Shown: positions 9,914-46,745, counted from the first letter of the stretch. The stretch is DNA of 64,000 bases from an uncultured Dehalococcoidia bacterium (GCA_913047625.1 CAJWUJ010000002.1:2743-66742), one strand, 5' to 3'. Notes: a model not told the origin generated them from the letters alone. A program made the numbers and translations.

Positions 9914-10043
9914 GTTCAGTATCCTCCCTGAGATTATTGCTGATGGCTATTGGTCTGTGTATGCAAGAATCACAAGCCAGACTGTCTATATTGGGGTTTT
10001 GTCTTGGCCACATTGAAAAACAGAGATGTGAAATAGTGTGAAT

Positions 10044-10118
10044 TGGCTCCCCGAGTAGGATTCGAACCTACGACCCGCCGGTTAACAGCCGGCTGCTCTA
10101 CCACTGAGCTATCGGGGA
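10044..10118 (-). tRNA. tRNA-Asn (anticodon GTT), CCA encoded
   Basis: The reverse complement TCCCCGA TA GCTC AGTGGTA GAGC A GCCGG CTGTTAA CCGGC GGGTC GTAGG TTCGAAT CCTAC TCGGGGA G CCA folds as a perfect 75-nt cloverleaf. Confidence 0.95.
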
Positions 10119-10176
10119 ATAATACCCGTCTCATTCTACCAAAAATCATCTCAGTAAGATTGATTTATTGATAGCA

Positions 10177-21149: not shown

Positions 21150-21181
21150 AATAGACCGTTGGTTTGAATAGTTTCTATTTG

Positions 21182-21210
21182 AGGGGGTACTGATCTCATT
21201 AGTACCCCCT
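21182..21210 (+). terminator. Perfect 10-bp stem-loop between the binding-protein and permease genes (attenuator or partial terminator)
   Basis: AGGGGGTACT (21182-21191), 9-nt loop, AGTACCCCCT (21201-21210). There is no clean U-run directly after it, so it may act as an mRNA-stabilising or attenuating hairpin. Confidence 0.45.
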
Positions 21211-21263
21211 AATCAGTAAATTTATTGGGTTCTTTTCCTTAGAACCTAGCTTGGATTAAGATT

Positions 21264-24140
21264 TTGCAATTAAGGCTTGGACCAAGTCGTAGCTTGGAAC
21301 TGCTGGACACGCATAAGAAAACCCTCATCGCGGCGATATTGTTGCTTGATGCTTGTATTGGTCTGCTATACGGAGCTGGATCAGTAGCGTGGTCAGGCCT
21401 TTTTGCCGGAGATCTCAAATGGATGTTCCAGTCCTTTGAAATGTTTATCGGTGGATTTATCTTTATCCACTCCTTCTTCGAATACGTTAGGCGCACAAAA
21501 CCAGTAGTTGCTTTCGGCACTCTGATAATTCTCACTACAGTATTAATTGTATTAATCCTGCAGTTACTCCTCTCGAGCTTGGGTAAGTCGAGCACAGTGA
21601 ACTACAATCTTTCCTCAGTAGGTATGAGTGGTTTATATTGGACCGCTGCATATTTAAGTGTTGCCGCGGGACTAGCACTCACCTACAAAGTCCAGCGGTT
21701 CGGAAATTTTGCTCAAGCTGAAATGATGCTGATTGGTGCATATGTTGCCATTACACTTATGTGGTCCGAGTACTTTTTCCCGATTTCAAGCGCACCGGAG
21801 GACGGGAAACTTGATTGGAGTCTACTCATTTGCGCTGGACTGGCTGCGTTTTTACTCACGGGCTTTGTTGGCGTAGTGATTGACCGTTTCGTATACAGGA
21901 AATTCCGTAAAAAAGCAGCTTCTCCCCAAGTCATGATGATTGCATCTCTTGGTATTGCAATGGTTATCCGAGCATTCTTATACATGAGGTTTTCTGCTGG
22001 CACATTTCGTTTTGTGCCGGACACTGATTGGAGATTGGTAGAGTCTAAGTTTTCAGTTCCAACAAAGTTAGTGCAGTTTTCTATCGGGGATCGAGGAGAA
22101 CTTAGCATACTGAGAATCTCTGAGACTGCCAATGCATACGGTTTTGCTTTTATGAAAGTTGCTCTTGTGGTTGGAGTAATAGCATCGGTGGTCATATTGA
22201 TGTTCATTTTGTACAAGACTCGGTTGGGAAGGAAAATGAGAGCTGTATCAGATAATTCAGATCTTGCAGCATCAAGCGGTATTGATGTGGAACGAGTACA
22301 TTCGACGAGTGCATTTTTATCAGCCGGTATTTCGGGTCTTGGTGGGGCAATGCTTGCAGGGGTGTTGCCGATAAATCCAGAGCTGGGCATTACGTTGCTT
22401 CTGCCAGCCTTTGCAGTTCTTATTCTAGGTACAATCGGTTCAATCCCTGGGGTTTTTATTGGAGCCCTGGTGGTTGGATTAGTAAGGTCAACTTCAGAGC
22501 CATTTTTAATCGGGATTGGTAATGCCCTAGATAGACCTACAATGAGTGGATTTGCTGAGGTTATGCCTTTTGTATTTTTAATTGCTGTTCTATTACTTCT
22601 GCCGAGGGGAATAGGGGATGTACTGACCCAGTGGAATATAGATCGTATGAAAAAAAGAGATCACAGTAAATATACTATTGGTCTTGGGAGTGGTACTACT
22701 GGAAGAGAAATATTTGGATCGATACGTGATAATTTTGCGTCCACTATTACTATACTGAACAACCAGTGTAATCTGGTCTTTGCAAATGTTCGAAGCAAGC
22801 TTATATGGATACTCAGAAAGGTGGCGTATCTGGGTAATGTTTTTAGGTTAGTAATAGCATTGTTTAGTAGACTGCTGGTGAAAACATCGTCCACCTTCGG
22901 AACTACCAAAAGAGAAACAGAGCGTGGGTCGTGGGTTACATTTGGGATCCTTTTTTTTATCTTGGTGCTGATAGTGCTTTTGCTGCCCAGTGCTACAGCT
23001 TTAACTAAGATAATGCAAGTAGCAAGAGTGGTTTCCTTACTAGGGATTTTTAGCTTACTTGCCATATCATTGAACTTGCATACTGGGATCACGGGAATGA
23101 CTAACTTTGGTGTAATCTTTTTTGCAGGACTAGGAGCGATCATAGTTGGGATCCTATGTGCTCCAGTTGAAACAAATGGGTATGGATGGGCTCCTTGGCA
23201 GGCCACTATCCTGGCAGTTTGCATATCGGGCTTAGCAGGATGGTTACTTGCTTACCCTACTGCTAGGTTACGTATGGACTATTTTGCTATCGTGACCATT
23301 TCATTAGGAGAAATACTCAGTATTGCACTTCGGTCAGAACCGTTATTACGGGCTGGGACTGTTACATCTGCTATAGGAATATCGCAATACACCCGTCCAT
23401 TTGAAGATTGGTGGAATTCAGGTGTGTCAAAAACTGTAGGAAGCTCGCTTGGACTTCCAGGTGTGGCTCCGTATGTCCTTGTCATTGCCCTGATGTGTGT
23501 AATTTGCGTACCGCTCGTCTGGTGGCTTTTAAACACTGTCTTGCGCTCTCCATGGGGGCGTATTTTGCGGTCGATAAGGGAAGATGAAGAAGTTAGTCAG
23601 CATCATGGACACAGTGTACTCATTCATAAAGCGAGTAGTTTAGCGATGGGAGCGGCAATAGCTGGCCTTGCAGGAGCCATATGGGCTTGGCTGAACACAG
23701 GGATTTTTCCTGAATTTATGAATCCGGTGCGTTCTACATTTTTAGTCTGGGCTGCATTTATAGTAGGAGGAAGAGGAAACAACCGCGGTATGATTATCGG
23801 TGCATTTCTTATCGTCATAGTAGATTTCTTTTTTAATGTTATGGTTGTTGCGAGAGGAGGTGCCAGTCTTCCTTTTCATGGAATAGTTACATATATCGAT
23901 AGTGCTTTTAGATGGTTCATTGTGGATTTGGGAGGTTTGGTTTGGTCGGATATGTCGATTGACCAGGTTTTTAAACGAGGAATTATCACTGCTAATCTTG
24001 AATATCTTAAATTAGCCTTAATTGGCGGTGTTATAGTGGGGACATTACAGTTAGCGCCCAAAGGTTTGTTGCCAGAAATTCCTAGCAGACCCGAACGTTC
24101 CGTTGTTCAAAGTAGTGATAGAGGAAAGACTGATGAATAG
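21264..24140 (+). CDS. Fused branched-chain-amino-acid-type ABC permease (LivH-like domain + LivM-like domain in one polypeptide); start codon uncertain
   Basis: Single 958-codon ORF. The LivH-like core runs from GLYWTAAYLSVAAGLALTYKVQRFGNFAQAEMMLIGAYVA to AVSDNSDLAASSGIDV...LLLLPRGIG. After a linker of roughly 100 to 140 aa comes the LivM-like core (LNLHTGITGMTNFGVIFFAGLGA...ILRSIREDEEVSQHHG...GLAGAIWA). About 110 aa of extra N-terminal TM segments are present if the TTG at 21264 is used; ATG 21423 is an alternative. Confidence 0.75.
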   Translation: MQLRLGPSRSLELLDTHKKTLIAAILLLDACIGLLYGAGSVAWSGLFAGDLKWMFQSFEMFIGGFIFIHSFFEYVRRTKPVVAFGTLIILTTVLIVLILQLLLSSLGKSSTVNYNLSSVGMSGLYWTAAYLSVAAGLALTYKVQRFGNFAQAEMMLIGAYVAITLMWSEYFFPISSAPEDGKLDWSLLICAGLAAFLLTGFVGVVIDRFVYRKFRKKAASPQVMMIASLGIAMVIRAFLYMRFSAGTFRFVPDTDWRLVESKFSVPTKLVQFSIGDRGELSILRISETANAYGFAFMKVALVVGVIASVVILMFILYKTRLGRKMRAVSDNSDLAASSGIDVERVHSTSAFLSAGISGLGGAMLAGVLPINPELGITLLLPAFAVLILGTIGSIPGVFIGALVVGLVRSTSEPFLIGIGNALDRPTMSGFAEVMPFVFLIAVLLLLPRGIGDVLTQWNIDRMKKRDHSKYTIGLGSGTTGREIFGSIRDNFASTITILNNQCNLVFANVRSKLIWILRKVAYLGNVFRLVIALFSRLLVKTSSTFGTTKRETERGSWVTFGILFFILVLIVLLLPSATALTKIMQVARVVSLLGIFSLLAISLNLHTGITGMTNFGVIFFAGLGAIIVGILCAPVETNGYGWAPWQATILAVCISGLAGWLLAYPTARLRMDYFAIVTISLGEILSIALRSEPLLRAGTVTSAIGISQYTRPFEDWWNSGVSKTVGSSLGLPGVAPYVLVIALMCVICVPLVWWLLNTVLRSPWGRILRSIREDEEVSQHHGHSVLIHKASSLAMGAAIAGLAGAIWAWLNTGIFPEFMNPVRSTFLVWAAFIVGGRGNNRGMIIGAFLIVIVDFFFNVMVVARGGASLPFHGIVTYIDSAFRWFIVDLGGLVWSDMSIDQVFKRGIITANLEYLKLALIGGVIVGTLQLAPKGLLPEIPSRPERSVVQSSDRGKTDE

Positions 24141-24915
24141 TTTGCCTTTGAAAGTACAACGGATAACCAAGACTTTTGGTGGTCTCACCGCTGTTGGTGG
24201 AATCTCTTTTGAGATAACTGATGGCGAGTTTGTAGGTCTTATTGGACCAAATGGGTGCGGAAAATCTACAGTGTTTAATTGTATTTCGGGTCTATTGCCT
24301 GTTAATTCTGGAGACATACAGGTGTTTGGCACCCCTTCCTCAGATCTACGGCCTGATCAGATACAGAGACTGGGATTAACTAGAACATTCCAGCATACTC
24401 GTTTATGGATGGGCATGACAGTAATAGAAAACCTTTTAGTACCTCCTAGGCAGCAATTTGCACCTAATCGATTATTGTCCTTGTTTAGACCAGGTTCAAG
24501 GAAAGAGGAACTTGCTCGTATTGAACACGCTTACGCTGTATTGGAAACGCTTGAAATTTCACATATGGCCCATAACTTAGCTAACGAATTATCTGGAGGG
24601 CAGAGCAAGCTGGTAGATCTTGGACGGGCATTAATGGGTGATCCCAGAATGCTGTTGCTTGATGAACCCGTGGCTGGTGTTGCAGCTCCTCTAGCTGAAA
24701 AAATATTTAGCAATTTACGAAAATTAGCTTCTGAGCAGGGAACAAGTGTTTTGGTTGTGGAACATAATATGAATTTCATATTGCGTACAGGAGTAGATAG
24801 AGTAATTGTTATGGATAGGGGTGAAATCTTAATGCAAGGTACTCCTGATGAAGTACGCCAAAACAGTGACGTAGTTGCTGCATATTTAGGCGGAACTGAA
24901 AAGAGGTCAAAATGA
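24133..24915 (+). CDS. livG: ABC transporter ATP-binding protein (LivG-like)
   Basis: Walker A GPNGCGKST, signature LSGGQSKL, Walker B LLLDEP. ATG 24133 (GAGGAAAG upstream) overlaps the permease stop. Confidence 0.85.
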   Translation: MNSLPLKVQRITKTFGGLTAVGGISFEITDGEFVGLIGPNGCGKSTVFNCISGLLPVNSGDIQVFGTPSSDLRPDQIQRLGLTRTFQHTRLWMGMTVIENLLVPPRQQFAPNRLLSLFRPGSRKEELARIEHAYAVLETLEISHMAHNLANELSGGQSKLVDLGRALMGDPRMLLLDEPVAGVAAPLAEKIFSNLRKLASEQGTSVLVVEHNMNFILRTGVDRVIVMDRGEILMQGTPDEVRQNSDVVAAYLGGTEKRSK

Positions 24916-25628
24916 GTCGTGTCCTTGAAGTAATTGGATTAACTGGTGGATACGGACCAATACAAATACTCAACGGTATTGACCTTCATGTTGAGGAAGG
25001 AGAATTCATTACGATTATAGGACCGAACGGATGTGGGAAATCAACTTTCATAAAAGTGATATTCGGGATAGCTGATCGATATGAAGGCTTAATTTCATAT
25101 CGAGGGGAGGATATATCTACATGGCGACCCGATCAATTAGTCAATAATGGGATTGCGTATGTTCCTCAGGTAGATAACATTTTCCCCTCTCTGACAGTTC
25201 GTGAGAATTTGCAAATGGGAGGGATCCAATTAACCTCCAAAATTCTTGCTGAACGTATCACGGAGGCGTTGGATATGTTTGGCGATCTTAAGTTTCGCAT
25301 GAATGACTTAGGAGCTTCACTTTCTGGGGGAGAGAGACAGATGTTAGCTATATCGCGTGCATTAATATCTAATCCGTCTTTTTTGCTTCTGGATGAACCA
25401 ACTGCTGCGCTTTCGCCTAAATATCAAACAGAGATCATAAATAGCATTGCGGCTCTCAAGGGAAAAGGCCTGACGATTTTGATTATAGAGCAAAATGCTA
25501 GGTTATCGTTATCAAAATCTGATCGAGGATACATTTTTGTAGGAGGAGAGGTAGCCTATGTCGCGAATGCAGACCAATTGCTTAATAGTACCGATATAGG
25601 GGCGTACTTTCTTGGTGCAAAGAGTTAG
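24912..25628 (+). CDS. livF: ABC transporter ATP-binding protein (LivF-like)
   Basis: Walker A GPNGCGKST, LSGGERQML, LLLDEP. ATGA overlap with the livG-like gene. Confidence 0.85.
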   Translation: MSRVLEVIGLTGGYGPIQILNGIDLHVEEGEFITIIGPNGCGKSTFIKVIFGIADRYEGLISYRGEDISTWRPDQLVNNGIAYVPQVDNIFPSLTVRENLQMGGIQLTSKILAERITEALDMFGDLKFRMNDLGASLSGGERQMLAISRALISNPSFLLLDEPTAALSPKYQTEIINSIAALKGKGLTILIIEQNARLSLSKSDRGYIFVGGEVAYVANADQLLNSTDIGAYFLGAKS

Positions 25629-27918: not shown

Positions 27919-29646
27919 ATGACAAGTGGAACAACTGATGCAGCAAGACTAGAGGTTTTAAAGAATAGCCTTGAGGGTATTGCTGACGGCATGGCTATGA
28001 CAGTGCTTAGGACAGCACGGTCGGCAGTTGTCAGGCAATCAACTGACTTTTCAACTGCCATACTAAGCGCTAATGGAGAATTAATTGGCCAGGGATTTTG
28101 TTTACCTCCTCACATGGGCGGTATGGTTCCTGCACTTCGGGCAGTGGTTGCTCGATACGAAGGCCAAATATTCCCAGGAGATATGTTTGCCCTTAATGAC
28201 CCATATGAAGGAGGTAGCCATCTGCCTGACATATTCATTTTTAAGCCTATGTTTCGGAACGATACCATAGTGGCTTATTTGTGTGCTATGGCTCATCAAA
28301 CTGATATTGGAGGGAGAGTAGCGGGTGGTAATGCATGCGATTCTTCTGAAATTTATCAAGAAGGACTCAGGATTCCACCAGTGAAGCTCTATGATGAAGG
28401 AATACCCAACGAGACAGTATTTCGCATTTTAGAAAAAGCGGTTCGTGTTCCAGATATTGTGATGGGGGATATTGCTGCTCAGATAGCAGCTATTCACTAT
28501 GGTGAAGGGGAATTCTTGAAAGTAGTGGATCGCTATGGTCTGGAAAACTTTCAGCAATATGTTGAAGAACTGGTTGATTATACTGAATCATTAACACGAG
28601 CTGCCATTCGGAAAATGCCAGATGGTTCATGGACTTGGAGTGATTATATTGATGATGACGGGTTTGATTCAGGAACAATCACTATTACCGCGACCGTAAC
28701 AAAAAAAGAGGATGAACTTTTTGTAGACTTTACTGGAACTTCACCTCAGTGTAAGGGGGCAATTCAGCCAGTATTTGCAACTACAAAAGCAGTAGTTTAT
28801 GCAGCTCTTAAAACAATGCTAGGAAACGAAATTCCCAATACATCGGGATATTTTCGCCCAGTGACAATCACGGCTCCGGAAGGAACGTTTGTCAACCCAA
28901 TTTTACCAGCGCCTGTTGCAGCCAGAACATTGGGTCTCATACGGATCGTTAATGCCGTTTTTGGGGCGTTTGCTCAGATGGCTCCAGACACAGTATATGC
29001 TGCCTGTGCTGGTTCAGATCTAGGACTAGGTATGGCTGGATATGACAAATCTAAGGTTCCATGGAAGCCTTGGGTTCTATTGGAATTCCATAATGAACCA
29101 GGTAGAGGAGGTTTCCCAGATAGAGATGGTCATGACGGAGTCGCAGCCGGTATTGTCAACCAAGCTAATATTCCAGTCGAAACTATTGAAGCAGAACACC
29201 CCCTAAAGGTATTGGAGTACAACTTTGTTTCTGATACCGAGGGAGCCGGCATGTTCAGGGGTTCAATGGGGATGACTCGATCTTGGGAATACACAATGTC
29301 TGATACGGTGCTACAGGTGCGTAGTGACCGACAGAAACATGCCCCTTATGGCTTGCATGGTGGCCAAGAACCGAGACTAGGAACTATTTCAGTCAAGAAA
29401 AACGGTGAAGAAAAGCCCATGCCTTCAAAATTCCTAACTGACATGGGGGTTGGTGACACAATCAGCGTGGTGTGGCCAGGTGGAGGTGGTTGGGGCGACC
29501 CTTCCCAAAGAGATCCGGAGATGGTCTTATGGGATGTGATTGAGGAGAAAGTTTCATTGGAAAGGGCAAAGGCTGTATATCGCGTTGCTATTACTTCTGA
29601 TGGAACCAGTATTGATTGGGCTGAAACCAAACAGATACGCGGCTAA
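27919..29646 (+). CDS. Hydantoinase B / oxoprolinase (HyuB) family protein, copy 2
   Basis: 575 aa, collinear with copy 1 (LEVLKNSLEGIADGMAMTVLRTARSAVVRQSTDFSTAIL...PGGGGWGDP). GAGGAG RBS 7 nt upstream. Confidence 0.85.
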   Translation: MTSGTTDAARLEVLKNSLEGIADGMAMTVLRTARSAVVRQSTDFSTAILSANGELIGQGFCLPPHMGGMVPALRAVVARYEGQIFPGDMFALNDPYEGGSHLPDIFIFKPMFRNDTIVAYLCAMAHQTDIGGRVAGGNACDSSEIYQEGLRIPPVKLYDEGIPNETVFRILEKAVRVPDIVMGDIAAQIAAIHYGEGEFLKVVDRYGLENFQQYVEELVDYTESLTRAAIRKMPDGSWTWSDYIDDDGFDSGTITITATVTKKEDELFVDFTGTSPQCKGAIQPVFATTKAVVYAALKTMLGNEIPNTSGYFRPVTITAPEGTFVNPILPAPVAARTLGLIRIVNAVFGAFAQMAPDTVYAACAGSDLGLGMAGYDKSKVPWKPWVLLEFHNEPGRGGFPDRDGHDGVAAGIVNQANIPVETIEAEHPLKVLEYNFVSDTEGAGMFRGSMGMTRSWEYTMSDTVLQVRSDRQKHAPYGLHGGQEPRLGTISVKKNGEEKPMPSKFLTDMGVGDTISVVWPGGGGWGDPSQRDPEMVLWDVIEEKVSLERAKAVYRVAITSDGTSIDWAETKQIRG

Positions 29647-35100: not shown

Positions 35101-35676
35101 TCAGCTTTTTGATCGCTTGGATGAAGGATCTTTGAATTGTTCAAAGCCCTTAGTCCTGTCGTTGAAACGTGCCAAAATGAATAACAGATCCGAGAGTCTA
35201 TTTAGGTAACGAAGCACCTCAGAGTTGGCTAGAAGGTTAGCTTCATAAAGTTTGACTGCTTCTCGTTCTGCTCTTCGTACAATGGTGCGTGCCATATCTA
35301 GAGCAGATGAGGTAGGCGAGTTTCCTGGAATGATGAATGATTTAGGTAGTTCAAACTTACCAGTCAACTCATCAATTTTTTCTTCGAGGCGGAGAGTCAT
35401 CTTTTCAGATACAGTTGTAAAGTGCTCTTGCAACTTACTGTAATCCTTAGGGCTGGTGGACAATTCTGCTCCTATAGTAAACAAGTCTTCTTGAAGTGAT
35501 TTAATTATGGATTTTATGTCAGTACTATCAGAAAGTGATCTGGCGAGACCAAGAGCAGAAACAGCTTCATCTGTGGTACCGTATGCTGCTAAATAAGGAT
35601 CAGATTTTGAGATCCTTCCCCCATATAAAAGACCCGTTTTGCCCTGATCACCATGCTTAGTATATATCTTTCCCAT
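35101..35676 (-). CDS. ATP:cob(I)alamin adenosyltransferase, PduO/MMAB type
   Basis: MGKIYTKHGDQGKTGLLYGGRISKSD is the typical PduO-type N-terminus. ATG 35676 has AAGAGG upstream. The 27-codon extension in the track ORF would lie upstream of the candidate promoter. Confidence 0.85.
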   Translation of the reverse strand: MGKIYTKHGDQGKTGLLYGGRISKSDPYLAAYGTTDEAVSALGLARSLSDSTDIKSIIKSLQEDLFTIGAELSTSPKDYSKLQEHFTTVSEKMTLRLEEKIDELTGKFELPKSFIIPGNSPTSSALDMARTIVRRAEREAVKLYEANLLANSEVLRYLNRLSDLLFILARFNDRTKGFEQFKDPSSKRSKS

Positions 35677-35709
35677 AAGACCTCTTATTCTTTTAGGATC
35701 ATTGCAAGG

Positions 35710-35718
35710 ATTATAGCA
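35710..35718 (-). promoter_or_regulatory. Candidate extended -10 promoter element (TGCTATAAT) for the adenosyltransferase gene
   Basis: The reverse complement of 35710-35718 is TGCTATAAT, about 35-40 nt upstream of ATG 35676. Confidence 0.3.
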
Positions 35719-35767
35719 CTTATGCTTGAAGACGGAGCAGGTGTTCAGATAATTCAACTAGTGTTTG

Positions 35768-36236: not shown

Positions 36237-37304
36237 ATGGTGACATCTTCATTAGAGAGTATATATAAGGCTGATGGAGCTGTGTTCACTGATCGAAGCG
36301 GGCATAAAATTGTTGGTCATTTTGGCAACTTCCATAAAGAAATTGAGGTGCTGCAAAGCAATGCAGGTCTCCTCGATATGTCTTACTGTGACAGATTAAA
36401 TGTAACTGGAGATGATGCTCTCGATTTACTTAACCGATTATCCACGAATCAGTTAGAAGGAATGGATATTGGCTCAGTCAGATGGACTATATTAACGACA
36501 CCAAAAGGTCGTATTATTGATGTACTCAGAGTTGCCAGGATGGAGGATTATCTGAGTGTTGGTGCTAGCCCTGAGAGGATCCAAAACATTATGGAGTGGA
36601 TCGACTTTTACACATTTGGAGAAGACGTTCAACTTGTAGATGTTTCTCAAAACACTGTTGAATTTTCTTTGATTGGTCCAAATGCACCATTAGTGCTAGG
36701 CAAGTTCGTTACGGGCGGGAAGGTACTCCCAAACGATACATGCGATAGTGTTCAGATAGGTGATACCAGTATTGCTGTTATTCGTTCTGATATGAAAGAC
36801 TATCCAAGAATTAACGTAATATGCCAGAGTAATGTTGCAATTGATATTAGACAGAGCCTTTTTGAAGCCGGCAAGGATTTCCACTTGATGGCAGTGGGGT
36901 TTCAGGCAGAGGATTTTCTTAGAATCACATTAGGGATACCAATTTACGGTTTTGAACTTGATGATAAAGTGGACCCCTTAACTGCTGGTCTTCTTGGCTA
37001 TGTTAATTTTGAGAAAGGATGTTATGTGGGGCAAGAGGTAGTAACGAGGCTGAACACGTACCAGAAGATCAAGAAAAAACTTATGATGATCCAATTAAGG
37101 GATGAGGTTAACTTGGGTGCAGAAATTTATAGTGACAATACTCTTATTGGCGAAATCACTTCAGTAGCTCCAGGGGAGCAGGGACAATGGAACTCTTTAG
37201 CTTATGTCAAGAAAACTTACGCTATTCCTGGTTTAGTATGTACTGTTGGGTCAGAATCGTTGGTTGAAGCACGAATTGTAGCTGAATGTTCTATCAAAGT
37301 CTGA
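36237..37304 (+). CDS. ygfZ: Folate-binding YgfZ/GcvT-like protein (Fe-S cluster repair associated)
   Basis: GcvT-like fold pattern and the diagnostic EKGCYVGQEVVTRL motif. It lies directly after the A-type carrier gene. Confidence 0.8.
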   Translation: MVTSSLESIYKADGAVFTDRSGHKIVGHFGNFHKEIEVLQSNAGLLDMSYCDRLNVTGDDALDLLNRLSTNQLEGMDIGSVRWTILTTPKGRIIDVLRVARMEDYLSVGASPERIQNIMEWIDFYTFGEDVQLVDVSQNTVEFSLIGPNAPLVLGKFVTGGKVLPNDTCDSVQIGDTSIAVIRSDMKDYPRINVICQSNVAIDIRQSLFEAGKDFHLMAVGFQAEDFLRITLGIPIYGFELDDKVDPLTAGLLGYVNFEKGCYVGQEVVTRLNTYQKIKKKLMMIQLRDEVNLGAEIYSDNTLIGEITSVAPGEQGQWNSLAYVKKTYAIPGLVCTVGSESLVEARIVAECSIKV

Positions 37305-40218: not shown

Positions 40219-41313
40219 TTATACAGAAGCGCTATGTAAGGCGTTTTTTACGGATTCGGCTATACGTTCTTTGGTTTGTCGTAGTAAGGATGTATTAACA
40301 TTGATGGTAAAAGTACGACTTGGACGTTGATTAGGATCCAAATAAATTGCATGTTCGGAGAGAGCCTGTCTGAATGTCTTCGGATTAATAGTTGGGGACA
40401 ATTTAACCAAGAAGATGTTGGATCCGTTCTTGAAAGCAGTGATACTGATCCCAGGTAAATTATTAATCAGCCTGAAGAGTAACTGAGACGTGCTAAAGGC
40501 TTTTTTATAGGTTTCTTCGAATGAGGTTAGTTCTTTTAGTGCCAATGCGGCAAAGAAGTAGGCACCCCACAGTGCTCCGCCAAACATTCGTCTGGACTGA
40601 ATCATAGGTTTCAGGAGATACGTTGGTCCAGCGAGAATAGCCCCGGATGGGGAATTAAGGTATTTATAGAGTGAAACGTAGACGGTATCAAAAAGCTTTG
40701 TGTAATCAGTAATAGGGATTTTGGTGGCTGCGGACATCATAAAAAGGCGAGCCCCGTCCAAGTGGCAGGCAATAGAATTTTGCCGGCAATAATCCGTGAT
40801 ACGTTGCATGTCACCATAAGCTACAGTCTGGCCCATTTTGCGTCGCACAGGGCTTTCTATAACTAGAGCAGCAATAGGTGTATCGACTCGTCCCGTTTTG
40901 GCGTTCCTGATTGCTTCTTTCAGTTCGTTGAGGGAGAAACATACCCTATTTTTCCCTAGTGGAATCAGTTTCAAACCACTTAGTTTTTCGAGTCCATCAC
41001 CAGTATCGTTATAAATGTGGCTCTGTTCAGGTACGATTACTCTTTTTTGCGACTGACATAAGTGCCGAAGAGCCAAATGGTTGGCCAGAGTCCCTGTTGG
41101 CATAAAAATAGCAGATTCTTTTCCGAGCAACGATGCCATTTGCTCTTCCAGAAGTTTAACAGTACCTCCAAGAGAAAAATGATCGGTCTCCAATCCCGAC
41201 ATCTCATGATAATGCTGTAGTCGTTCTAGGAGATCTCCAGGGTTCAGCCTGTCGCTTTCTCCCCATAAATAGACTGGTTGAGACTTGTGGTCGTTGCTAT
41301 GTTCAGAAAACAT
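40219..41313 (-). CDS. Fold-type I PLP enzyme, threonine aldolase / beta-eliminating lyase family
   Basis: LEEQMASLLGKESAIFMPTGTLANHLALRHL and SLYKYL (candidate PLP Lys), 364 aa. Confidence 0.6.
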   Translation of the reverse strand: MFSEHSNDHKSQPVYLWGESDRLNPGDLLERLQHYHEMSGLETDHFSLGGTVKLLEEQMASLLGKESAIFMPTGTLANHLALRHLCQSQKRVIVPEQSHIYNDTGDGLEKLSGLKLIPLGKNRVCFSLNELKEAIRNAKTGRVDTPIAALVIESPVRRKMGQTVAYGDMQRITDYCRQNSIACHLDGARLFMMSAATKIPITDYTKLFDTVYVSLYKYLNSPSGAILAGPTYLLKPMIQSRRMFGGALWGAYFFAALALKELTSFEETYKKAFSTSQLLFRLINNLPGISITAFKNGSNIFLVKLSPTINPKTFRQALSEHAIYLDPNQRPSRTFTINVNTSLLRQTKERIAESVKNALHSASV

Positions 41314-41336
41314 CTACTGTCCGTTTCCTTAATTGA

Positions 41337-42356
41337 CTACAAGGAGAGTTCTTTCCGTACGATAGCTGTTCCTTGCACCATGGCAGTGAGTTTACTTACC
41401 GCTATGTACCGTGGGCTCCACCCAAAACCGCAGTCAGGATTTACGAATACGGTGTCTGGTTTGGCGTATTTCAAGACGTCCCTAAGGCGAGAGGCTACAT
41501 CCTCTGGTGATTCAGGATGGAATGATTTAACGTCTATGATCCCAGCACCGAGTTCTCTTCCATCTGCCCAATCTGACCACTTTTCGACTTCACTCATTTC
41601 TCGACTTGCGTATTCCAGAACGAATTGGTCTGCATTAGCATTGAGAACGCCTGGGAAGTAATCGCCATAGGATCGTTTGAAGCGTGCGCGGCCTGCTCTA
41701 TTGCCAAAGCAGATGTGAAATGCAAGTTTGGCTTTCACTCCATTAGTTGCTTTGTTGAAAAGCCGTGCCATTTCTTCGCCTGTTACGTTTCCTCTTGCTG
41801 GTTCGTCGATTTGGATGAAGGTAGCTCCGTTTGCAACAAGTTCCTTGAGCTCGGTGTTAATCACCTCGGCAAATTCTTCAGCAACACTCACTGTGTCTTT
41901 ATAAATATTAGCCGGATGTATCCTAGAGCCGAATGTCAGTGGTCCAGCACAAGTTGCTTTAGTATGAAGGCTAGTTTTACTAACAAGATAGGTATATTCA
42001 CTGACAATTCCTAAACCAGCGGGAGCTTTTATAGGTGCTGTAGCCTTATACCGAGTTTGTTGATCATATCCCCAAGGACCAGCTTTGCGTTTTGGTTCTG
42101 TGGCCTGAATACCCTCGATAATTGCATAGTAACCATCGACATATCCATCGAGCCTTCTTGATTCGCCATCGGTAATAATATCTAGGCCTGCTCTTTCCTG
42201 ATCTAATATCGCAATGTCAACGGCGTCGTCTAGAAGCTCTGAGAGATCCTGAGATCCCCATTCTCCTGTATCTATCAAGCCTTTGCACTGATGCCACCAG
42301 CTTGGCTTAGCATGGGAACCTACGACTGTGGTTGGTAATAAGGGTAACTTATTCAT
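41337..42356 (-). CDS. Cobalamin-independent methionine synthase catalytic-domain-like protein (short MetE-like, Meth_synt_2 family)
   Basis: LLPTTVVGSHAKPSWW, IQIDEPA, HICFGN and NPDCGF (Zn-ligand His/Cys pattern), 339 aa. Its start overlaps the aconitase stop by 8 nt. Confidence 0.75.
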   Translation of the reverse strand: MNKLPLLPTTVVGSHAKPSWWHQCKGLIDTGEWGSQDLSELLDDAVDIAILDQERAGLDIITDGESRRLDGYVDGYYAIIEGIQATEPKRKAGPWGYDQQTRYKATAPIKAPAGLGIVSEYTYLVSKTSLHTKATCAGPLTFGSRIHPANIYKDTVSVAEEFAEVINTELKELVANGATFIQIDEPARGNVTGEEMARLFNKATNGVKAKLAFHICFGNRAGRARFKRSYGDYFPGVLNANADQFVLEYASREMSEVEKWSDWADGRELGAGIIDVKSFHPESPEDVASRLRDVLKYAKPDTVFVNPDCGFGWSPRYIAVSKLTAMVQGTAIVRKELSL

Positions 42357-44280
42357 CTTTACTATTCTCTCCTACGTATGTTAGTAATCCTCCAGCCAAC
42401 AAGATTTCTCTTTGCCGACTGCTGATTTCAAGGTTTGTGATTATTGTTGTTTCTGAGGTTTGGTTGTGAACCGGAAACGAATTCGAACCACTTTCAAGAA
42501 GTTCTATAACATTATCCAAGTTTAATGTATCTCCTTCTTGAATAGCATCATAGTCTGCCTCTGACTGAAGCGTTAGGGGCAAGATGCCATAGTTGATCAG
42601 GTTGCCAAAATGAATTCTTGAGAATGATTTTGCAATGACAATTGTAACGCCCAGAGACATTGGGCAAAGAGCTGCATGCTCTCTAGAACTACCTTGGCCA
42701 TAATTATGACCGCCTACGATAATACCGCCTTGCTTTTTCTTGACACGGTTGATGAAATCGGCGTCCACATATTTGAAAAGATATTCTCGTATAGCCGGCA
42801 CGTTCGACCGAAGAGGAAGCACTGTGGGACCTGCTGGGAGTATGTGATCTGTAGATATATTGTCACCAAGTTTAATGAGAATATCGCCTACTATTTTTCG
42901 GCCCATGGGGTTTTTGACTGGGACTGGTTGAATGTTTGGTCCCCTCCGGATTTGAACATATTGCCCGTTCTTTGGAGGGGGAATGATGCCATTGGTATTA
43001 ATATTAAATCGCTCAGGGTTTTCGGGCGCGGACGATATATCAAGGTCTCTAGGATCAGCTATGTAGCCACTTAGCGCTGCTGCAGCACAAGCGATTGGAC
43101 TTGCTAAATACACGTGGTTATCTAATCCACCTGAGCGACCTGGGAAATTGCGGTTAAATGAACGAACAGAAACAGCACCTGAGGAAGGGATTTGCCCCAT
43201 TCCGGCGCAAGGACCACATGCTGACTCCAGTATTCGGGCACCAGCGGCAATCATATCGGCCAGAGCACCGTTTTCTGCTATTAGTTGGAGCACTTGTTTC
43301 GAACCTGGGCTAACGACCATATTAACATTTGGATGGATCGTTTTACCACGTAATGCAGAAGCTACAGTCATTAGATCTGAAAATGATGAGTTTGTGCAAC
43401 TTCCAATTGCTACTTGGTTCACAGGGGTTCCAGAGACTTCCGTTATTGAGCACACATTGTCAGGACTATCAGGTCTGGCAATCAGAGGTTCTAATTCAGA
43501 CAAATCCAACGTTAGTGTGTCATCATAACATGCATCAGCATCTGGACGAAGCTCTTGAAAATAAGACTCACGGCCTTGTTGAACCAAATATGCTAGAGTT
43601 TGTTTGTCACTTGGGAAAATAGATGTCGTTGCCCCTAATTCTGCGCCCATATTGGTTATTGTGGCTCGTTGGGGGACATCTAAAGTTGCTACTCCTGGGC
43701 CGTAATATTCGAGTGCCCAACCGATACCTCCTTTAACGGAGAGATCACCAAGGAGTTTCATGATGATGTCTTTTGCACTGACTCCACGGGAAAGCTGTCC
43801 TTCTAAGCAAATGCCTCTGACTTTTGGCATCTTAAAGTAGTACGGGCTTCCAGCCATAGCAATAGCCACGTCCAGACCACCTGCGCCCAAAGAGAGAGTA
43901 CCCATGCCTCCACATGTAGGGGTATGGCTATCAGTTCCTAGTAGAGTGACTCCAGGTACTGCAAATCTTTCTAAGTGTACTTGGTGGCAGATACCATTAC
44001 CTGGTCGAGAAAAATGAATTCCATATTTGGCAGCCACATCTTGAAGATAAATATGATCATCTGCGTTTCGGAAGTCACCTTGCATCATATTATGATCAAT
44101 ATAACTTACTGCGAGATCAACTTTGACGCGATCAGCCCCCGTAGCTTCGAATTGAAGATATGATAGGGTGCCTGTGGCATCCTGTGTCAGTGTCTGATCA
44201 ACTCGAATAGCTATTTCATTTCCAGCTTCAGGCGTTCCACTAACCAAGTGGGCTTGTATAATCTTTTGGACAAGATTCAA
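42349..44280 (-). CDS. Aconitase-family Fe-S hydro-lyase (about 640 aa, catalytic and swivel domains fused)
   Basis: DQTLTQDATGT, GTDSHTPTCGG, GSCTNSS and CGPCAGMG (three cluster Cys), with a C-terminal swivel domain GGHNYGQGSSREHAA. TTG 44280 (AAGGAG 7 nt upstream, giving MNLVQKIIQAH) is preferred over the track's GTG 44322. Confidence 0.85.
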   Translation of the reverse strand: MNLVQKIIQAHLVSGTPEAGNEIAIRVDQTLTQDATGTLSYLQFEATGADRVKVDLAVSYIDHNMMQGDFRNADDHIYLQDVAAKYGIHFSRPGNGICHQVHLERFAVPGVTLLGTDSHTPTCGGMGTLSLGAGGLDVAIAMAGSPYYFKMPKVRGICLEGQLSRGVSAKDIIMKLLGDLSVKGGIGWALEYYGPGVATLDVPQRATITNMGAELGATTSIFPSDKQTLAYLVQQGRESYFQELRPDADACYDDTLTLDLSELEPLIARPDSPDNVCSITEVSGTPVNQVAIGSCTNSSFSDLMTVASALRGKTIHPNVNMVVSPGSKQVLQLIAENGALADMIAAGARILESACGPCAGMGQIPSSGAVSVRSFNRNFPGRSGGLDNHVYLASPIACAAAALSGYIADPRDLDISSAPENPERFNINTNGIIPPPKNGQYVQIRRGPNIQPVPVKNPMGRKIVGDILIKLGDNISTDHILPAGPTVLPLRSNVPAIREYLFKYVDADFINRVKKKQGGIIVGGHNYGQGSSREHAALCPMSLGVTIVIAKSFSRIHFGNLINYGILPLTLQSEADYDAIQEGDTLNLDNVIELLESGSNSFPVHNQTSETTIITNLEISSRQREILLAGGLLTYVGENSKDE

Positions 44281-44333
44281 ATATCTGCTCCTTGATATGC
44301 ATTCTAACGATAGTGACACCACACCGATCTGAT

Positions 44334-45488
44334 TCAGCCTAGTGAACTTAAAGGCACCAAGATTGATCCTTCCATAATCCTTCTGGCAGTTCGATAGGTC
44401 GTGATTCTTTTAGCTTGCCATGACCCGCCCACTTGTTTCATCTCTGCTCCTACTTCGATGACACCGGCAGGATGACCGATTCTGAGTGGGCCTTGCATGG
44501 CGGCGCCGATTGTATCGTGTACGATAGTATTGTTTATATTAGCAGCAGCTGCCAGACACATGCTTACAGTAGCGGGGATTGTTCTGTGGGTCAAACCCAT
44601 AGAAATTGCCCGTATGCAGAGGTCAGTTTCGTGTGTAGCAATATACCTATTATCGCTTGTCTGGTAAGAGGTTGAAGAACCAATCATAACAACTTTTGGT
44701 ACTGCTTTACTTGAAATTAAGGAATTATCAACACCGTTGGACAATTGCATCTTTTGTGAGGCATGTACCCTAATTGTTTCCAAAAGCGATTGCAGGGCTG
44801 TATCTGCATCCAAATCAGGTGGGAACTTGGTTATGTCTGCGCTTACATCTTCTGCTCGTACGAAAACCACCGGTATTGTAACGTCAACGATGGAGACTGA
44901 AATTGTCTTGTTGGGGGAAATTTGGATAGTGTCTGTCGGGCTACCAGTTGGAAGAATTGATCCCGTGGTGTTGCCACTGGGATTAATAAAGTCGAGCTTT
45001 ACGGGAGATCCAGTTCCCGGAACTCCTGCAATGGCATAATCCCCTTCTACTTGGTACTGACCGTCTTTGACTGAGATATGGGCTTCGATGAGCTGACTAG
45101 TATTTGTTGCTAGTATGCGAACTTTGGTAATAGGATCTCGTGTCTTAATAAGATTTTCCTCTATACCGTAAGGTCCTACTGCTGCCATCATATTTCCGCA
45201 GGTGCCTTTCCAATCAATGATTGGAGTACGGACGTCAACTTGCCCAAACGTGAAAGTCAGGTCGATGCCGGAGGTTGAGCTTTTGCCTATAATACCAACT
45301 TTACTGAGGGATGAAATTCCCCCACCGAGACCGTCAATTTGCCGACCATAGGGGTCAGGACTCCCTAAAGCAGTTAATATAATTTTATTCTTATCTTCGG
45401 AAGAGTACTTGGCAATATCATTTTCTGCAAAGAAAACTGCTCTGCTGGTACCACCCCGCATAAATACTGCAGGAACTTTGACTTGAAT
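44334..45488 (-). CDS. prpF: PrpF / methylaconitate-methylitaconate isomerase family protein; probable non-canonical ATT start
   Basis: MRGGTSRAVFF, GSPDPYGRQIDGLGGG and WKGTCGNM. The family-conserved strand IQVKVPAVF precedes the first ATG (45461) in frame, with no ATG/GTG/TTG upstream. ATT at 45488 lies 8 nt after AGAGAGG. Confidence 0.8.
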   Translation of the reverse strand: MQVKVPAVFMRGGTSRAVFFAENDIAKYSSEDKNKIILTALGSPDPYGRQIDGLGGGISSLSKVGIIGKSSTSGIDLTFTFGQVDVRTPIIDWKGTCGNMMAAVGPYGIEENLIKTRDPITKVRILATNTSQLIEAHISVKDGQYQVEGDYAIAGVPGTGSPVKLDFINPSGNTTGSILPTGSPTDTIQISPNKTISVSIVDVTIPVVFVRAEDVSADITKFPPDLDADTALQSLLETIRVHASQKMQLSNGVDNSLISSKAVPKVVMIGSSTSYQTSDNRYIATHETDLCIRAISMGLTHRTIPATVSMCLAAAANINNTIVHDTIGAAMQGPLRIGHPAGVIEVGAEMKQVGGSWQAKRITTYRTARRIMEGSILVPLSSLG

Positions 45489-45503
45489 AACTGATACCTC
45501 TCT

Positions 45504-46634
45504 TTAAAGATTTTGAGACTTGTGTTTTTTGCCTCGTTCCCCGGTGTAAAGGGCTCTTGGCCGAATCAACCTATTGTTGTTATATTGTTCCAGAATATGT
45601 GCAGACCACCCAGCTATTCTGGTGCTAGCGACGACGTTTGTCATCATGTTTAACTGGAAGCCTAGTTGGTACAGAACTATAGCAGCATAGTAGTCCACAT
45701 TCGGTATGATATTTTTCGAGTTTTTCATGGCTTGTTCAGCCTCTTGGGCTATTTCATACCACTGGCTGTCTCCATGGGATGTACTCATTTCTCGTGCCAG
45801 ATCCTTAAGTTCAGCAGCGCGAGGATCTCCTGCCCGGTAAACTCTGTGGCCAAAGCCTGACAATTTTTGTTTATTGGATAGGGCTGTTTCAACATAAGGT
45901 TTTGCCTTATCTGGAGACCCTATATCCATAAACATTCGCATTGCATCGTCTATCGCGCCACCGTGCAGCGGCCCTTTAATAGCTCCAATCCCCGCGACTA
46001 CTGATGAGTAGAAATCTGAGAGCGTACCCACAACCACACGACAGGCAAATGTGGAGGCATTTGTTTCATGCTCAGCATATAAGACAAGAGTAGTTTCAAA
46101 TGCCTTTAGGTCAACAGGATCTGGTTTTTCACCAGTAAGCATATATAAGTAGTTTTCAGAATGTCCTAGTGCTGGATTCGGAGATACGGGGTCTTTACCA
46201 CTCTGTATTCTTGATTGAGCAGCAACGATTGTGGGCATTTTGGCTGTTAGATTTATAGCCTTTCTGAGATTGTCATCATTCGTTAGATTATCAGCGCTTG
46301 GATCTGAAGCACCGATTAACGATACAGCAGTACGCAATACTGCCATAGGATGTGCTTCCTTAGGGGTTGTGGAAAGAACCTGTAATACAGAAGATGGAAT
46401 ATTGCGAAGAGAAGCAAGCTCTTTGCTGAAATCATTGAGGACATCACCTGTAGGTAAAGTACTGTACAACAAGAGGTAAGTCATCTCTTCGAAGCTAAGA
46501 GAGCTTGCAATTTCTTTGATATCGTATCCGCGAATAATTAACTCAGGTATGTTACCGTCAATAGTCGCTATAGATGATTCGAACGCCAGAATGCCATCCA
46601 AGCCTAGCTTCACTTGATTTTGTTCAGTTGTCAT
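45504..46634 (-). CDS. Citrate synthase family protein (2-methylcitrate synthase / small citrate synthase type)
   Basis: 376 aa with GPLHGGA and SGFGHRVYRAGDPRA active-site His motifs. Confidence 0.85.
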   Translation of the reverse strand: MTTEQNQVKLGLDGILAFESSIATIDGNIPELIIRGYDIKEIASSLSFEEMTYLLLYSTLPTGDVLNDFSKELASLRNIPSSVLQVLSTTPKEAHPMAVLRTAVSLIGASDPSADNLTNDDNLRKAINLTAKMPTIVAAQSRIQSGKDPVSPNPALGHSENYLYMLTGEKPDPVDLKAFETTLVLYAEHETNASTFACRVVVGTLSDFYSSVVAGIGAIKGPLHGGAIDDAMRMFMDIGSPDKAKPYVETALSNKQKLSGFGHRVYRAGDPRAAELKDLAREMSTSHGDSQWYEIAQEAEQAMKNSKNIIPNVDYYAAIVLYQLGFQLNMMTNVVASTRIAGWSAHILEQYNNNRLIRPRALYTGERGKKHKSQNL

Positions 46635-46745
46635 AAGTTTTTCCTTTAAGTGGAGATTTCTTTGGTCGTTAGTTTAGCGGGAATTATCCGCTATTTCGAA
46701 AAACTAATTTTCAACTAGTGAGTCGTTACAGTCAACTTGATAGAT

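Follow-up and report, generated by a model that had tools for sequence, protein, structure and literature searches.

Why would a gene for a MetE-like zinc enzyme, predicted to bind homocysteine, share an operon with genes for a citrate/2-methylcitrate synthase and its dehydratase? This question is raised by a 64-kb stretch of DNA (hereafter, the window) from the genome of a marine Dehalococcoidia bacterium (SAR202-type). No described pathway accounts for such a pairing, and we found no description of this operon in the literature. Single-barrel MetE-like enzymes form a large family that is routinely annotated as methionine synthase, although a second substrate is established for few of them. 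Here, one tight clade of them (MetEl) is coupled to a particular clade of citrate synthases and to a dehydratase of methylcitrate type; the lineages involved (SAR202, Tectomicrobia, Nitrospinota, Binatia, and Rokubacteria) are abundant and for the most part uncultured. Solving this link would reveal either a new carbon-sulfur reaction off the methylcitrate route or methionine synthesis with neither a folate site nor B12. The latter outcome, if true, would alter how ocean and soil metagenomes are scored for B12 dependence and propionate metabolism.

A conserved four-gene unit

The original prediction of five genes on one strand, and of their identities, was borne out, with all five ORFs confirmed on the minus strand. 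The conserved module starts with a type-II citrate/2-methylcitrate synthase (376 aa; 45504..46634; PF00285, E 1.6e-124), followed by a PrpF-family isomerase (44334..45488; PF04303, E 2e-107) of 384 aa if translated from an ATT at 45488 or 375 aa if translated from an ATG at 45461. Then come a short, "Aquifex-type" Fe-S aconitase (643 aa; 42349..44280; NF005558, TIGR01342), with a TTG start behind AAGGAG, and MetEl, a predicted single-barrel MetE-like Zn/homocysteine enzyme (339 aa; 41337..42356; PF01717, E 2.5e-28). Last is a threonine-aldolase/GntG-like fold-I PLP enzyme (364 aa; 40219..41313; PF01212, E 3.5e-42). The predicted spacings hold as well, two of them given particular start codons. 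The end of the aconitase gene and the start of MetEl overlap by exactly 8 nt (ATGAATAA), and exactly 23 nt separate the MetEl stop from the start of the PLP enzyme, which is preceded by AAGGAA. The 15-nt gap between synthase and PrpF depends on the ATT start at 45488, while that of 53 nt between PrpF and aconitase depends on the TTG at 44280, the longest aconitase ORF beginning at GTG 44322. This ATT is likely to be the PrpF start since AGAGAGG precedes it by 7-9 nt and the longer protein regains a conserved strand (QVKVPAVFMRGGTS); the score against Shewanella PrpF (PDB) also rises from 255 to 265 bits. The operon is preceded by a 111-nt spacer, in which a consensus scan and direct reading revealed a promoter-like TTGACT/GAAAAT pair and a palindrome, AGCGGATAATTCCCGCT (46676..46735, minus strand). 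The pair is a candidate, total consensus-scan matches in the region being no more numerous than expected by chance. A riboswitch search of the 64-kb window returned none.

The gene order was then compared in relatives, read as 20-kb loci. The four-gene order recurs in these loci, while the five-gene order originally proposed is confined to the window's own species. The conserved unit therefore consists of the genes for the type-II (2-methyl)citrate synthase, PrpF, the 643-aa Fe-S aconitase, and MetEl. Among 85 non-redundant MetEl loci, 30 show the order synthase-PrpF-aconitase-MetEl (Tectomicrobia, SAR202, Binatia, Nitrospinota, and Chloroflexota) and two show CS-Acn-PrpF...MetEl, where CS is the synthase and Acn the aconitase. 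In nine others, from one Dehalococcoidia clade, the order is synthase-MetEl-PrpD-family; both aconitase and PrpF are missing, and the synthase and MetEl remain adjacent. Finally, in ~30 Rokubacteria/Methylomirabilota loci, MetEl, with the same active-site residues, lies behind a LivKHMGF-type ABC transporter with no synthase nearby. The four-gene order is seen again in 30 other species-level loci, and the arrangement far exceeds chance. The MetE-like gene, which recurs with the synthase cluster across related loci, is a true operon member, as had been suggested. In 18 of the 30 four-gene loci, it begins within the end of the aconitase gene (-4 or -8 nt), and in 9/9 PrpD-type loci it lies against the end of the synthase gene (-8 to +6 nt). 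Unrelated genes flank the four-gene set on both sides in Tectomicrobia, and neither downstream nor export genes are conserved alongside the set.

At least five phyla have inherited the four genes as one block. Identity across five phyla is 59-78% for the block, with MetEl its most conserved member, which fits the transfer of a functional unit; the GC content of MetEl loci spans 38% to 72%. Pairwise identities of the four proteins correlate (r 0.85-0.95; Mantel p 0.001 for synthase vs MetEl), as would equally be expected from plain vertical descent. Approached from the synthase side, both of two blind homologue look-ups led to MetEl clusters; a minimum of 14 further synthase homologues lie on contigs equal in length to those of MetEl matches.

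The synthase and the two dehydratase forms

The synthase passes the model for PrpC-type (type-II) citrate/2-methylcitrate synthases (TIGR01800, 457 bits vs a cut-off of 421) and displays the catalytic motifs HGGA (224), GHRVY (262), and NVDYY (312). Its nearest 120 homologues are 59-67% identical, those looked up lying in MetE-like clusters. The synthase belongs to a clade of type-II (2-methyl)citrate synthases dedicated to this unit. As for the aconitase, it scores far above the cut-offs of NF005558 (911 bits vs 612) and TIGR01342 (891 vs 719). It has cluster cysteines in GSCTN and CGPCAG, the GSSREHA and PLRSN motifs, and the tricarboxylate-binding Arg, and among solved structures it comes nearest to mitochondrial aconitase (E 2e-99). 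AcnD (~860 aa) was considered and rejected for this 643-aa protein, which scores 179 bits against TIGR02333 for a cut-off of 1420, in line with the earlier remark that it is too short and with its NF005558/TIGR01342 type. PrpF matches PF04303 and falls below the equivalog cut-offs of both TIGR02334 (299 vs 441) and the OMA tautomerase. It is ~45% identical to Shewanella PrpF (2PVZ) and has kept the equivalents of catalytic Lys73 and Cys107 (SLSK and GTCGN). Its scores are 255-265 bits against PrpF and 238-248 bits against 3-methylitaconate isomerase (3G7K).

2-Methylcitrate can be dehydrated in two ways, either by an aconitase that needs PrpF or by a PrpD-type enzyme that does not. The exchange of aconitase plus PrpF for PrpD among our loci mirrors, by analogy, these two forms of the 2-methylcitrate cycle. 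This strengthens the likeness to the AcnD/PrpF variant that was originally pointed out, inasmuch as sister genomes swap two genes for a single PrpD-family gene (its product scoring under the equivalog cut-off) and keep the synthase and MetEl. Given this known either/or, the most likely task of the first enzymes is to condense propionyl-CoA (or acetyl-CoA) with oxaloacetate into (2-methyl)citrate and then to turn this into (2-methyl)-cis-aconitate by dehydration.

The remainder of a canonical prp operon is absent from the window. Its 64 kb encode no PrpB/ICL, PrpD, PrpE, or PrpR, nor any further citrate synthase or aconitase, and Pfam scans of all its ORFs of at least 150 aa revealed neither an AMP-binding ligase nor a sigma-54 regulator. 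PEP-mutase and ICL Pfam families are likewise absent from 10 Pfam-annotated related loci, and tblastn with an ICL query found ICL genes only in seven SAR202 loci, where they adjoin the cluster. The reported lack of PrpB thus holds for the window and extends to related clusters, in which none was detected, and that of PrpE and PrpR holds for the window. By analogy with canonical prp operons, we infer that MetEl holds the slot of the methylisocitrate lyase PrpB.

The operon therefore resembles the prpB-prpC-acnD-prpF operons of Shewanella, Vibrio, and Ralstonia in combining a type-II synthase, an Fe-S aconitase-family dehydratase, and a PrpF with its Lys and Cys, and it resembles the prpBCD form through the sister genomes. 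It differs in its 643-aa Aquifex-type aconitase, as opposed to ~860-aa AcnD, in having a MetE-like enzyme in place of PrpB and neither PrpE nor PrpR, and in PrpF and PrpD-like proteins that fall under equivalog cut-offs. Citrate synthase, aconitase, and a PrpF-family isomerase also make up the set that yields trans-aconitate in aconitate isomerase routes to trans-aconitate/itaconate (Ustilago Adi1/Tad1, Bacillus trans-aconitate genes, and engineered E. coli; PMC12492653). In contrast to these routes, the operon has no decarboxylase or exporter, and the PrpD-type sister clusters have no isomerase.

MetEl and its homocysteine site

MetEl scores below every NCBIfam methionine-synthase cut-off, whether PRK04326 (209 bits vs 406, the best), PRK09121 (150 vs 392), or PRK00957 (95 vs 258). 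With 339 aa and one barrel, vs two barrels and ~750 aa for MetE, it reaches only 74 bits against TIGR01371, for which the cut-off is 930. Its AF2 model (pLDDT 81) bears out the single barrel and shows a Foldseek TM of 0.8 to both the C-terminal barrel of MetE and MesD (3RPD), the invariant loops 91-100 and 221-230 being flexible parts of the model. The predicted Zn ligands (H214, C216, E248, and C309) and homocysteine ligands (S14, E65, and D184) do not vary among 20 family members and are those by which core methionine synthases are recognized (PMC7857596). MetEl further shares the QIDEP motif with MetE.

While half the size of MetE, MetEl also differs from it in the region where methyl-folate binds. 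In the C-terminal barrel of T. maritima MetE, W539 stacks on the folate, E583 contacts N3/2-NH2, and R493/R496 contact the glutamate (PMC539065). Mapping this numbering via N. crassa 4ZTX (constant offset of 32) onto an alignment of ~22% identity, anchored by GP.T...P and DEPA, we found the changes W539→R145, E583→N190, R493→D98, and R496→T101. In addition, H672 is replaced by Lys, and DMV has become DGYV. By sequence, then, MetEl retains the Zn and homocysteine residues of MetE/MesD and has lost the methyl-folate residues of MetE. MetEl paralogues vary at exactly the replaced positions, and in the wider single-barrel family (3461 representatives at E<=1e-3), the folate Trp occurs in just 1 of 45 full-length representatives. 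R67, R68, R252, K277, and R316, which lie near the Zn site, are common in that wider family and hence not MetEl-specific.

The closest parallel is with the core methionine synthases MesA-MesD/split MetE (Price et al. 2021, PMC7857596), which are likewise single barrels of ~340 aa with an HCEC Zn site and a Ser/Glu/Asp homocysteine site and lack the N-terminal barrel that binds folate. MetEl is 28% identical to MesD (3RPD) and scores below the cut-offs of all curated family models. Its partners also differ, with a citrate synthase and a dehydratase instead; DUF1852 (MesX), a corrinoid protein, or a Meth_synt_1 partner is encoded in none of the annotated loci L001-L010, L091-L094, and L097-L099. 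At another locus (L084), MetEl is immediately preceded by a methylene-THF reductase (MTHFR) gene. None of the annotated loci contains genes for an alkene monooxygenase or for CoM; one homologue (P0034) is labelled epoxyalkane:CoM transferase (2-hydroxypropyl-CoM lyase) in one source.

Possible reactions of the encoded pathway

The reading that we tentatively favor, at a probability of roughly 0.3, is that MetEl adds Zn-activated homocysteine to (methyl)aconitate made by its neighbors. The synthase would condense propionyl-CoA or acetyl-CoA with oxaloacetate into (2-methyl)citrate, which the dehydratase genes would convert to (2-methyl)-cis-aconitate. This unsaturated tricarboxylate would be the second substrate of MetEl, whose zinc-activated homocysteine thiolate would add across the activated double bond to give an S-(tricarboxyalkyl)homocysteine thioether, the route departing from the methylcitrate pathway ahead of the lyase step. 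Comparable Zn-thiolate chemistry is carried out by LanC cyclases and epoxyalkane:CoM transferase. In favor of this reading are the conservation of the four-gene module, the exchange between the two dehydratase forms, the retained Zn/homocysteine residues with altered folate positions, and the lack of a lyase in the window and the annotated loci. Against it, free carboxylate enoates are poor Michael acceptors, and we know of no product of this kind, nor can we name a physiological role for it. To our knowledge, all characterized relatives with the Zn/homocysteine residues of MetEl are methionine synthases, so the family precedent is methyl transfer. The ~30 Rokubacteria/Methylomirabilota loci without a synthase and the MTHFR gene at L084 also count against it. 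The conserved neighbors might alternatively provide the second substrate in the way that MesX does for MesD. If they supplied an alkyl or methyl donor made from central metabolites, MetEl would be a fifth folate-/cobalamin-independent homocysteine alkyltransferase family, a tricarboxylate-fed methionine or thioether synthase, a scheme that we regard as rather improbable.

The main rival of the thioether reading, itself doubtful but to be taken seriously, is that the operon spares B12. MetEl would be a stand-alone methionine synthase needing neither cobalamin nor a MetE-type folate site, beside a cobalamin-independent propionyl-CoA (methylcitrate) route with which it would share regulation rather than substrates; the genes would be co-located because both replace B12 enzymes (MetH and methylmalonyl-CoA mutase). 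MetEl keeps all Zn and homocysteine residues, its closest solved structure is a methionine synthase (MesD, 3RPD), and the MTHFR gene at L084 is in line with such a role. The organism uses B12, since the window encodes a PduO-type cobalamin adenosyltransferase. Moreover, MetH/MetE and mutase/methylcitrate pairs are established, e.g., in M. tuberculosis (PMC4428469), and an algal core-MetE fusion is induced under B12 shortage (PMC10861871). However, neither the window nor seven related loci showed a cobalamin or SAM riboswitch, for which the 111-nt leader would not leave enough room. PrpB, although essential for the methylcitrate route, went undetected in the clusters, in which MetEl is always there. 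The replaced folate determinants leave the methyl donor unexplained, and mixed-pathway operons seldom survive three re-arrangements across phyla. In another reading, MetEl and its paralogues would be demethylases, moving a methyl group from an imported, already activated sulfonium or ammonium compound to homocysteine, with the remainder entering the synthase/dehydratase route as a CoA ester. In its favor, in Rokubacteria operons an FAD oxidoreductase, a MetE paralogue, an enoyl-CoA hydratase, a CaiC-like ligase, LivKHMGF, and MetEl follow one another, a CoA-transferase III and a hydratase are often next, and up to three paralogues per locus, catalytically intact by sequence, differ at donor-pocket positions that vary throughout the wider single-barrel family. 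Such catabolic methyl transfer is nevertheless unlikely, for the four-gene operons are self-contained with no transporter or ligase, the CaiC-like and transporter matches are under curated cut-offs, and we could name no methyl donor whose remainder would require a citrate synthase.

Two further explanations carry less weight. The synthase and aconitase could be the TCA enzymes of these lineages, with PrpF repairing trans-aconitate and MetEl a normal methionine synthase, their adjacency being metabolically meaningless. This agrees with the NCBI annotation (citrate synthase, aconitate hydratase, and methionine synthase), with the curated "aconitate hydratase" models that the aconitase passes, with the absence of a second synthase or aconitase in 64 kb, and with the isocitrate lyase gene adjoining seven SAR202 clusters, as in a glyoxylate-shunt cluster. 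It is made quite improbable by the nine loci in which a PrpD-family protein, which cannot make isocitrate, stands for the aconitase with synthase and MetEl still coupled. The conservation of the block in five phyla at 59-78% identity, MetEl foremost, also speaks against it, as does the PrpF and aconitase pair, a signature of methylcitrate handling rather than of the TCA cycle. The original prediction had offered, as an alternative, a different branched pathway for di- or tricarboxylates, akin to those of methylitaconate/dimethylmalate or (homo)citramalate. We consider it very improbable, even though PrpF scores nearly as high against 3G7K as against PrpF, and a CoA-transferase III and a CitE/RipC-like lyase lie divergently beside PrpD-type clusters. 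PrpF is slightly nearer to methylaconitate isomerases than to Mii, the aconitase is of the fused, full-length true type (tricarboxylate-binding Arg and GSSREHA) rather than the two-subunit DmdAB/LeuCD type, the synthase belongs to the citrate-synthase family and not to LeuA/CimA, and none of the mutases, lyases, or dehydrogenases that such pathways use is conserved.

As for the fifth gene, tblastn found the PLP enzyme in L001-L006 only, which are copies of one species, that of the window. Its gene belongs to the operon in this species alone and lies outside the conserved module. Its scores are below the cut-offs of both the GntG family (130 bits vs 230) and LtaE (91 vs 312), and the protein carries the fold-I lysine motif SLYK.

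Genes of the operon and their surroundings

The five minus-strand ORFs between 40219 and 46634 that make up the operon were confirmed where the original prediction had placed them. The first, a type-II citrate/2-methylcitrate synthase (45504-46634), scores 457 bits against TIGR01800 (cut-off 421) and has all its catalytic motifs. It is followed by a PrpF-family protein (PF04303, E 2e-107), which retains Lys73/Cys107, and by a 643-aa Fe-S aconitase, which keeps three cluster cysteines and the Ser/Arg motif. This aconitase lies above the curated cut-offs for “Aquifex-type” aconitate hydratases (911 vs. 612 for NF005558, 891 vs. 719 for TIGR01342) and far from AcnD, scoring 179 against a cut-off of 1420. 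The fourth gene (41337-42356) encodes a 339-aa MetE-like protein, here named MetEl, which consists of a single PF01717 barrel, scores under all curated methionine-synthase cut-offs, and starts 8 nt before the end of the aconitase gene. The last gene, which begins 23 nt after MetEl, encodes a threonine-aldolase/GntG-like PLP enzyme (40219-41313) that is also under curated cut-offs. The predicted spacings are exact, given an ATT start for PrpF (45488) and a TTG start for the aconitase (44280), the latter preceded by AAGGAG. The rare ATT codon lies 27 nt upstream of the ATG selected by gene callers (45461-45488, minus strand). The resulting extension restores the conserved N-terminal first strand (QVKVPAVFMRGGTS) and raises the score against Shewanella PrpF by 10 bits, and an AGAGAGG ribosome site is found upstream. 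As judged by these features, PrpF translation most likely begins at ATT 45488. The 111-nt leader of the operon contains a perfect palindrome, AGCGGATAATTCCCGCT, downstream of a promoter-like TTGACT/GAAAAT pair (46676-46735). This palindrome may be an operator; no regulator adjoins the operon in the window.

Marine assemblies, Tara Oceans among them, also contain the DNA of the window, as does an NCBI MAG (GCA_002717085.1, labelled Dehalococcoidia bacterium). When every ORF of at least 150 aa was assigned, a typical SAR202-type catabolic landscape emerged. None of these ORFs encodes PrpB/isocitrate lyase, PrpD, PrpE, PrpR, MetH, MetF, or a second synthase or aconitase; the absence of PrpB had already been noticed.

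Conservation of the unit and exchange of the dehydratase

A MetEl homologue alignment was scanned against one genome per species, which gave 80 loci, and look-ups added more; gene content was read by tblastn with known queries and by Pfam-annotated look-ups. Among the 85 non-redundant MetEl-carrying loci used for counting, 30 have the synthase, PrpF, aconitase, and MetEl genes in this order on one strand, while four more are truncated at a contig edge. Nine have the order synthase-MetEl-PrpD family, two have synthase-aconitase-PrpF farther upstream of MetEl, and 39 carry MetEl without synthase, aconitase, PrpF, or PrpD genes. The full set of four genes is shared by Entotheonella/Tectomicrobia, SAR202/Dehalococcoidia, Binatia, Nitrospinota, and other Chloroflexota, in loci ranging from 38% to 72% GC, and in a Tectomicrobia genome the four genes stand alone amid flagellar and unrelated genes. 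The PLP gene was seen by tblastn over the loci only in the window's own species and is therefore outside the unit, which reduces the five-gene unit originally proposed to four. MetEl is translationally coupled to whichever gene precedes it, starting at -4 or -8 nt relative to the aconitase stop in 18 of the 30 four-gene loci, and at -8 to +6 nt from the synthase stop in all nine PrpD-type loci. The pairwise identities of the four proteins correlate (r 0.85-0.95; synthase vs. MetEl, Mantel p 0.001), which is equally expected under vertical descent, and mean identity is highest for MetEl (73%), followed by the aconitase (68%), synthase (62%), and PrpF (57%). We conclude that the unit is a co-inherited four-gene module.

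The synthase of the window has its nearest 120 homologues at 59-67% identity, at least 14 of which lie on contigs equal in length to those of MetEl matches. Two homologues picked for lacking such a length match and looked up blind were found in a synthase-MetEl-PrpD cluster and in a four-gene cluster, respectively, and the closest relative comes from a PrpD-type cluster. The synthase clade is therefore dedicated to MetEl clusters. Unlike the synthase, PrpF has homologues (~52% identical) in unrelated clusters as well, of the M20/ADH/luciferase type. One such conserved cluster (L095 and L096, two of the related loci from other genomes; 4790-10191) consists of an M20 amidohydrolase, a Zn-ADH, two luciferase-like monooxygenases, and PrpF. 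In the clusters surveyed, the aconitase is invariably accompanied by PrpF, and the PrpD-family gene occurs without either. The PrpD-like gene product has diverged, with 144 bits where the cut-off is 950; among solved structures, 2-methylcitrate dehydratases match it best (E 3e-26), and cis-aconitate decarboxylases come next. In the 2-methylcitrate cycle, 2-methylcitrate is dehydrated either by PrpD alone or by an Fe-S aconitase-family enzyme together with PrpF, which isomerizes the product. The same either/or is seen in the present clusters, which supports the earlier suggestion of a resemblance between the AcnD/PrpF branch and the way in which the first three genes function, even if the aconitase of the window is not AcnD. 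The dehydratase module has been swapped, with synthase and MetEl kept together. CoA-transferase III genes and a CitE/RipC-like lyase lie near PrpD-type clusters.

Operons of the prpBC-acnD-prpF and prpBCD types hold PrpB, and by analogy MetEl would take the slot of PrpB. PrpB itself went undetected in the related clusters. Just upstream of the synthase, seven SAR202 loci carry LysR and isocitrate lyase genes (711 bits for the lyase, cut-off 562); isocitrate lyase is present neither in the window nor at the other surveyed loci. The two genes are divergent and belong to one SAR202 subclade (L031, L032, L034, L036, L037, L038, and L040; about 3000-5500). The aconitase-MetEl spacer is 200-270 nt in five of these seven loci, with L031 and L040 keeping a 4-nt overlap. 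MetEl is overlain by an antisense ORF exceeding 350 aa in L025 (9803-10891) and in ~40 further high-GC loci; this ORF is missing from the window (43% GC) and is regarded as an artefact of codon composition.

Active site of MetEl

The closest solved structure to MetEl is Shewanella MesD (3RPD; E 3e-31 by sequence, 28% identity, TM 0.79), followed by MetE C-terminal barrels (TM 0.8); the AF2 model has a pLDDT of 81 and a pTM of 0.85. Methionine synthases can be recognized by seven residues (Price et al., PMC7857596), all of which are invariant in MetEl: H214, C216, E248, and C309 for zinc, and S14, E65, and D184 for homocysteine. The folate determinants of the MetE C-barrel listed by Pejchal and Ludwig (PMC539065) were mapped via an N. 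crassa alignment, with a constant offset of 32 from T. maritima (D499/W571/E615 vs. D467/W539/E583). In MetEl, W539 is replaced by R145, E583 by N190, R493 by D98, H672 by K277, and DMV by DGYV. Next to MetEl, the annotated loci show no MesX, corrinoid protein, or Meth_synt_1 partner. Since the zinc and homocysteine residues are kept and the folate determinants replaced, MetEl is predicted to be a homocysteine-binding zinc alkyltransferase whose second substrate would be held otherwise than folate is in MetE.

MetEl forms a tight clade, with the next full-length relatives 48-50% identical. Across the wider single-barrel family, the zinc and homocysteine residues are retained and positions 70-72, 95-102, 145, 188-190, and 219-220 vary, and the folate Trp is found in just 1 of 45 full-length representatives. 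Rokubacteria paralogues of MetEl are catalytically intact by residues and differ at exactly these variable positions. An argument from an “arginine-rich pocket” is weakened, R67, R68, R252, K277, and R316 being common to the whole family. Two other roles were rejected for MetEl, a non-homologous methylisocitrate lyase and an itaconate-making UROD-like decarboxylase, both because the zinc site is of the coordinatively saturated, thiol-alkylation type and because invariant acidic residues bind the homocysteine amino group.

Possible links between MetEl and its neighbors

What stands firm is that a methylcitrate-type synthase/dehydratase is tied in function to a MetE-like homocysteine enzyme of a new clade, which would interest those who study methionine synthesis, B12 ecology, or propionate metabolism. 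The component families are described in the literature, in which no account of a citrate synthase/PrpF/aconitase/MetE-like cluster turned up. As to the nature of the tie, we infer that (methyl)aconitate made by the neighboring enzymes could be the second substrate of MetEl, on which zinc-activated homocysteine would add to its double bond. We give this addition a probability of roughly 0.3, and chose it as the most direct link that agrees with either form of the cluster, with the missing lyase, and with a folate site that has been lost. However, methyl transfer is the precedent in the family, no product of such a kind is known, and MetEl also occurs at loci without a synthase. A further point against it is the MTHFR neighbor in L084, where the order is synthase-aconitase-PrpF-unknown-MetE#3-MTHFR(+MTHFR_C)-MetEl; the third MetE-like paralogue is followed there by a methylene-THF reductase fused to an MTHFR C-terminal Cys-rich domain (PF12225), and then by MetEl (7436-11008).

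Slightly less probable is a pairing that spares B12, in which a methionine synthase accompanies the methylcitrate route. The seven retained methionine-synthase residues favor it; the replaced folate determinants speak against it, as does a riboswitch search that gave nothing in the window or in seven related loci. Catabolic methyl transfer from an imported donor seems unlikely; for this reading, ~30 Rokubacteria/Methylomirabilota loci are of interest, in which a LivKHMGF-type transporter operon ends with MetEl, often with a PF12831 flavoprotein, a MetE paralogue, an enoyl-CoA hydratase, and a CaiC-like ligase ahead of it. L074 joins both contexts (synthase-aconitase-PrpF-LivKHMGF-PhyH-MetEl). 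(Methyl)aconitate itself was rejected as the source of a transferable methyl group, plausible chemistry not being found. That these are plain housekeeping genes is improbable: the lack of a second synthase or aconitase in the window speaks for it, but nine loci have a PrpD-family gene instead of the aconitase. The methylitaconate/dimethylmalate pathway of the original prediction is highly improbable.

Several other gene arrangements were observed. In Rokubacteria, L092 (88-11023; also L069, L072, L076, L079, L080, and L087) has PF12831, MetE paralogue, enoyl-CoA hydratase, CaiC-like CoA ligase, LivKHMGF, and MetEl genes; the second MetE paralogue is catalytically intact and 45% identical to MetEl, which places two homocysteine-type zinc enzymes within one catabolic-looking operon. 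At a distance of 3-5 kb from the operon, the window has a PduO-type cobalamin adenosyltransferase (35101-35757) and a GCV_T aminomethyltransferase/DmdA-like gene (36237-37304); both are relevant to B12/one-carbon readings and are not conserved beside the operon elsewhere. Two Hydantoinase_B/oxoprolinase genes (12431-14146 and 27919-29646) are without an adjoining Hydantoinase_A. The N- and C-domains of a thiamine-diphosphate enzyme are encoded by two separate genes that overlap (18806-19312 and 19305-19859), a layout as in sulfopyruvate and phosphonopyruvate decarboxylases. A Peripla_BP_6 ABC operon (19992-25628) has a 958-aa permease (21264-24140) in which two BPD_transp_2 (LivH/LivM-type) modules are fused.
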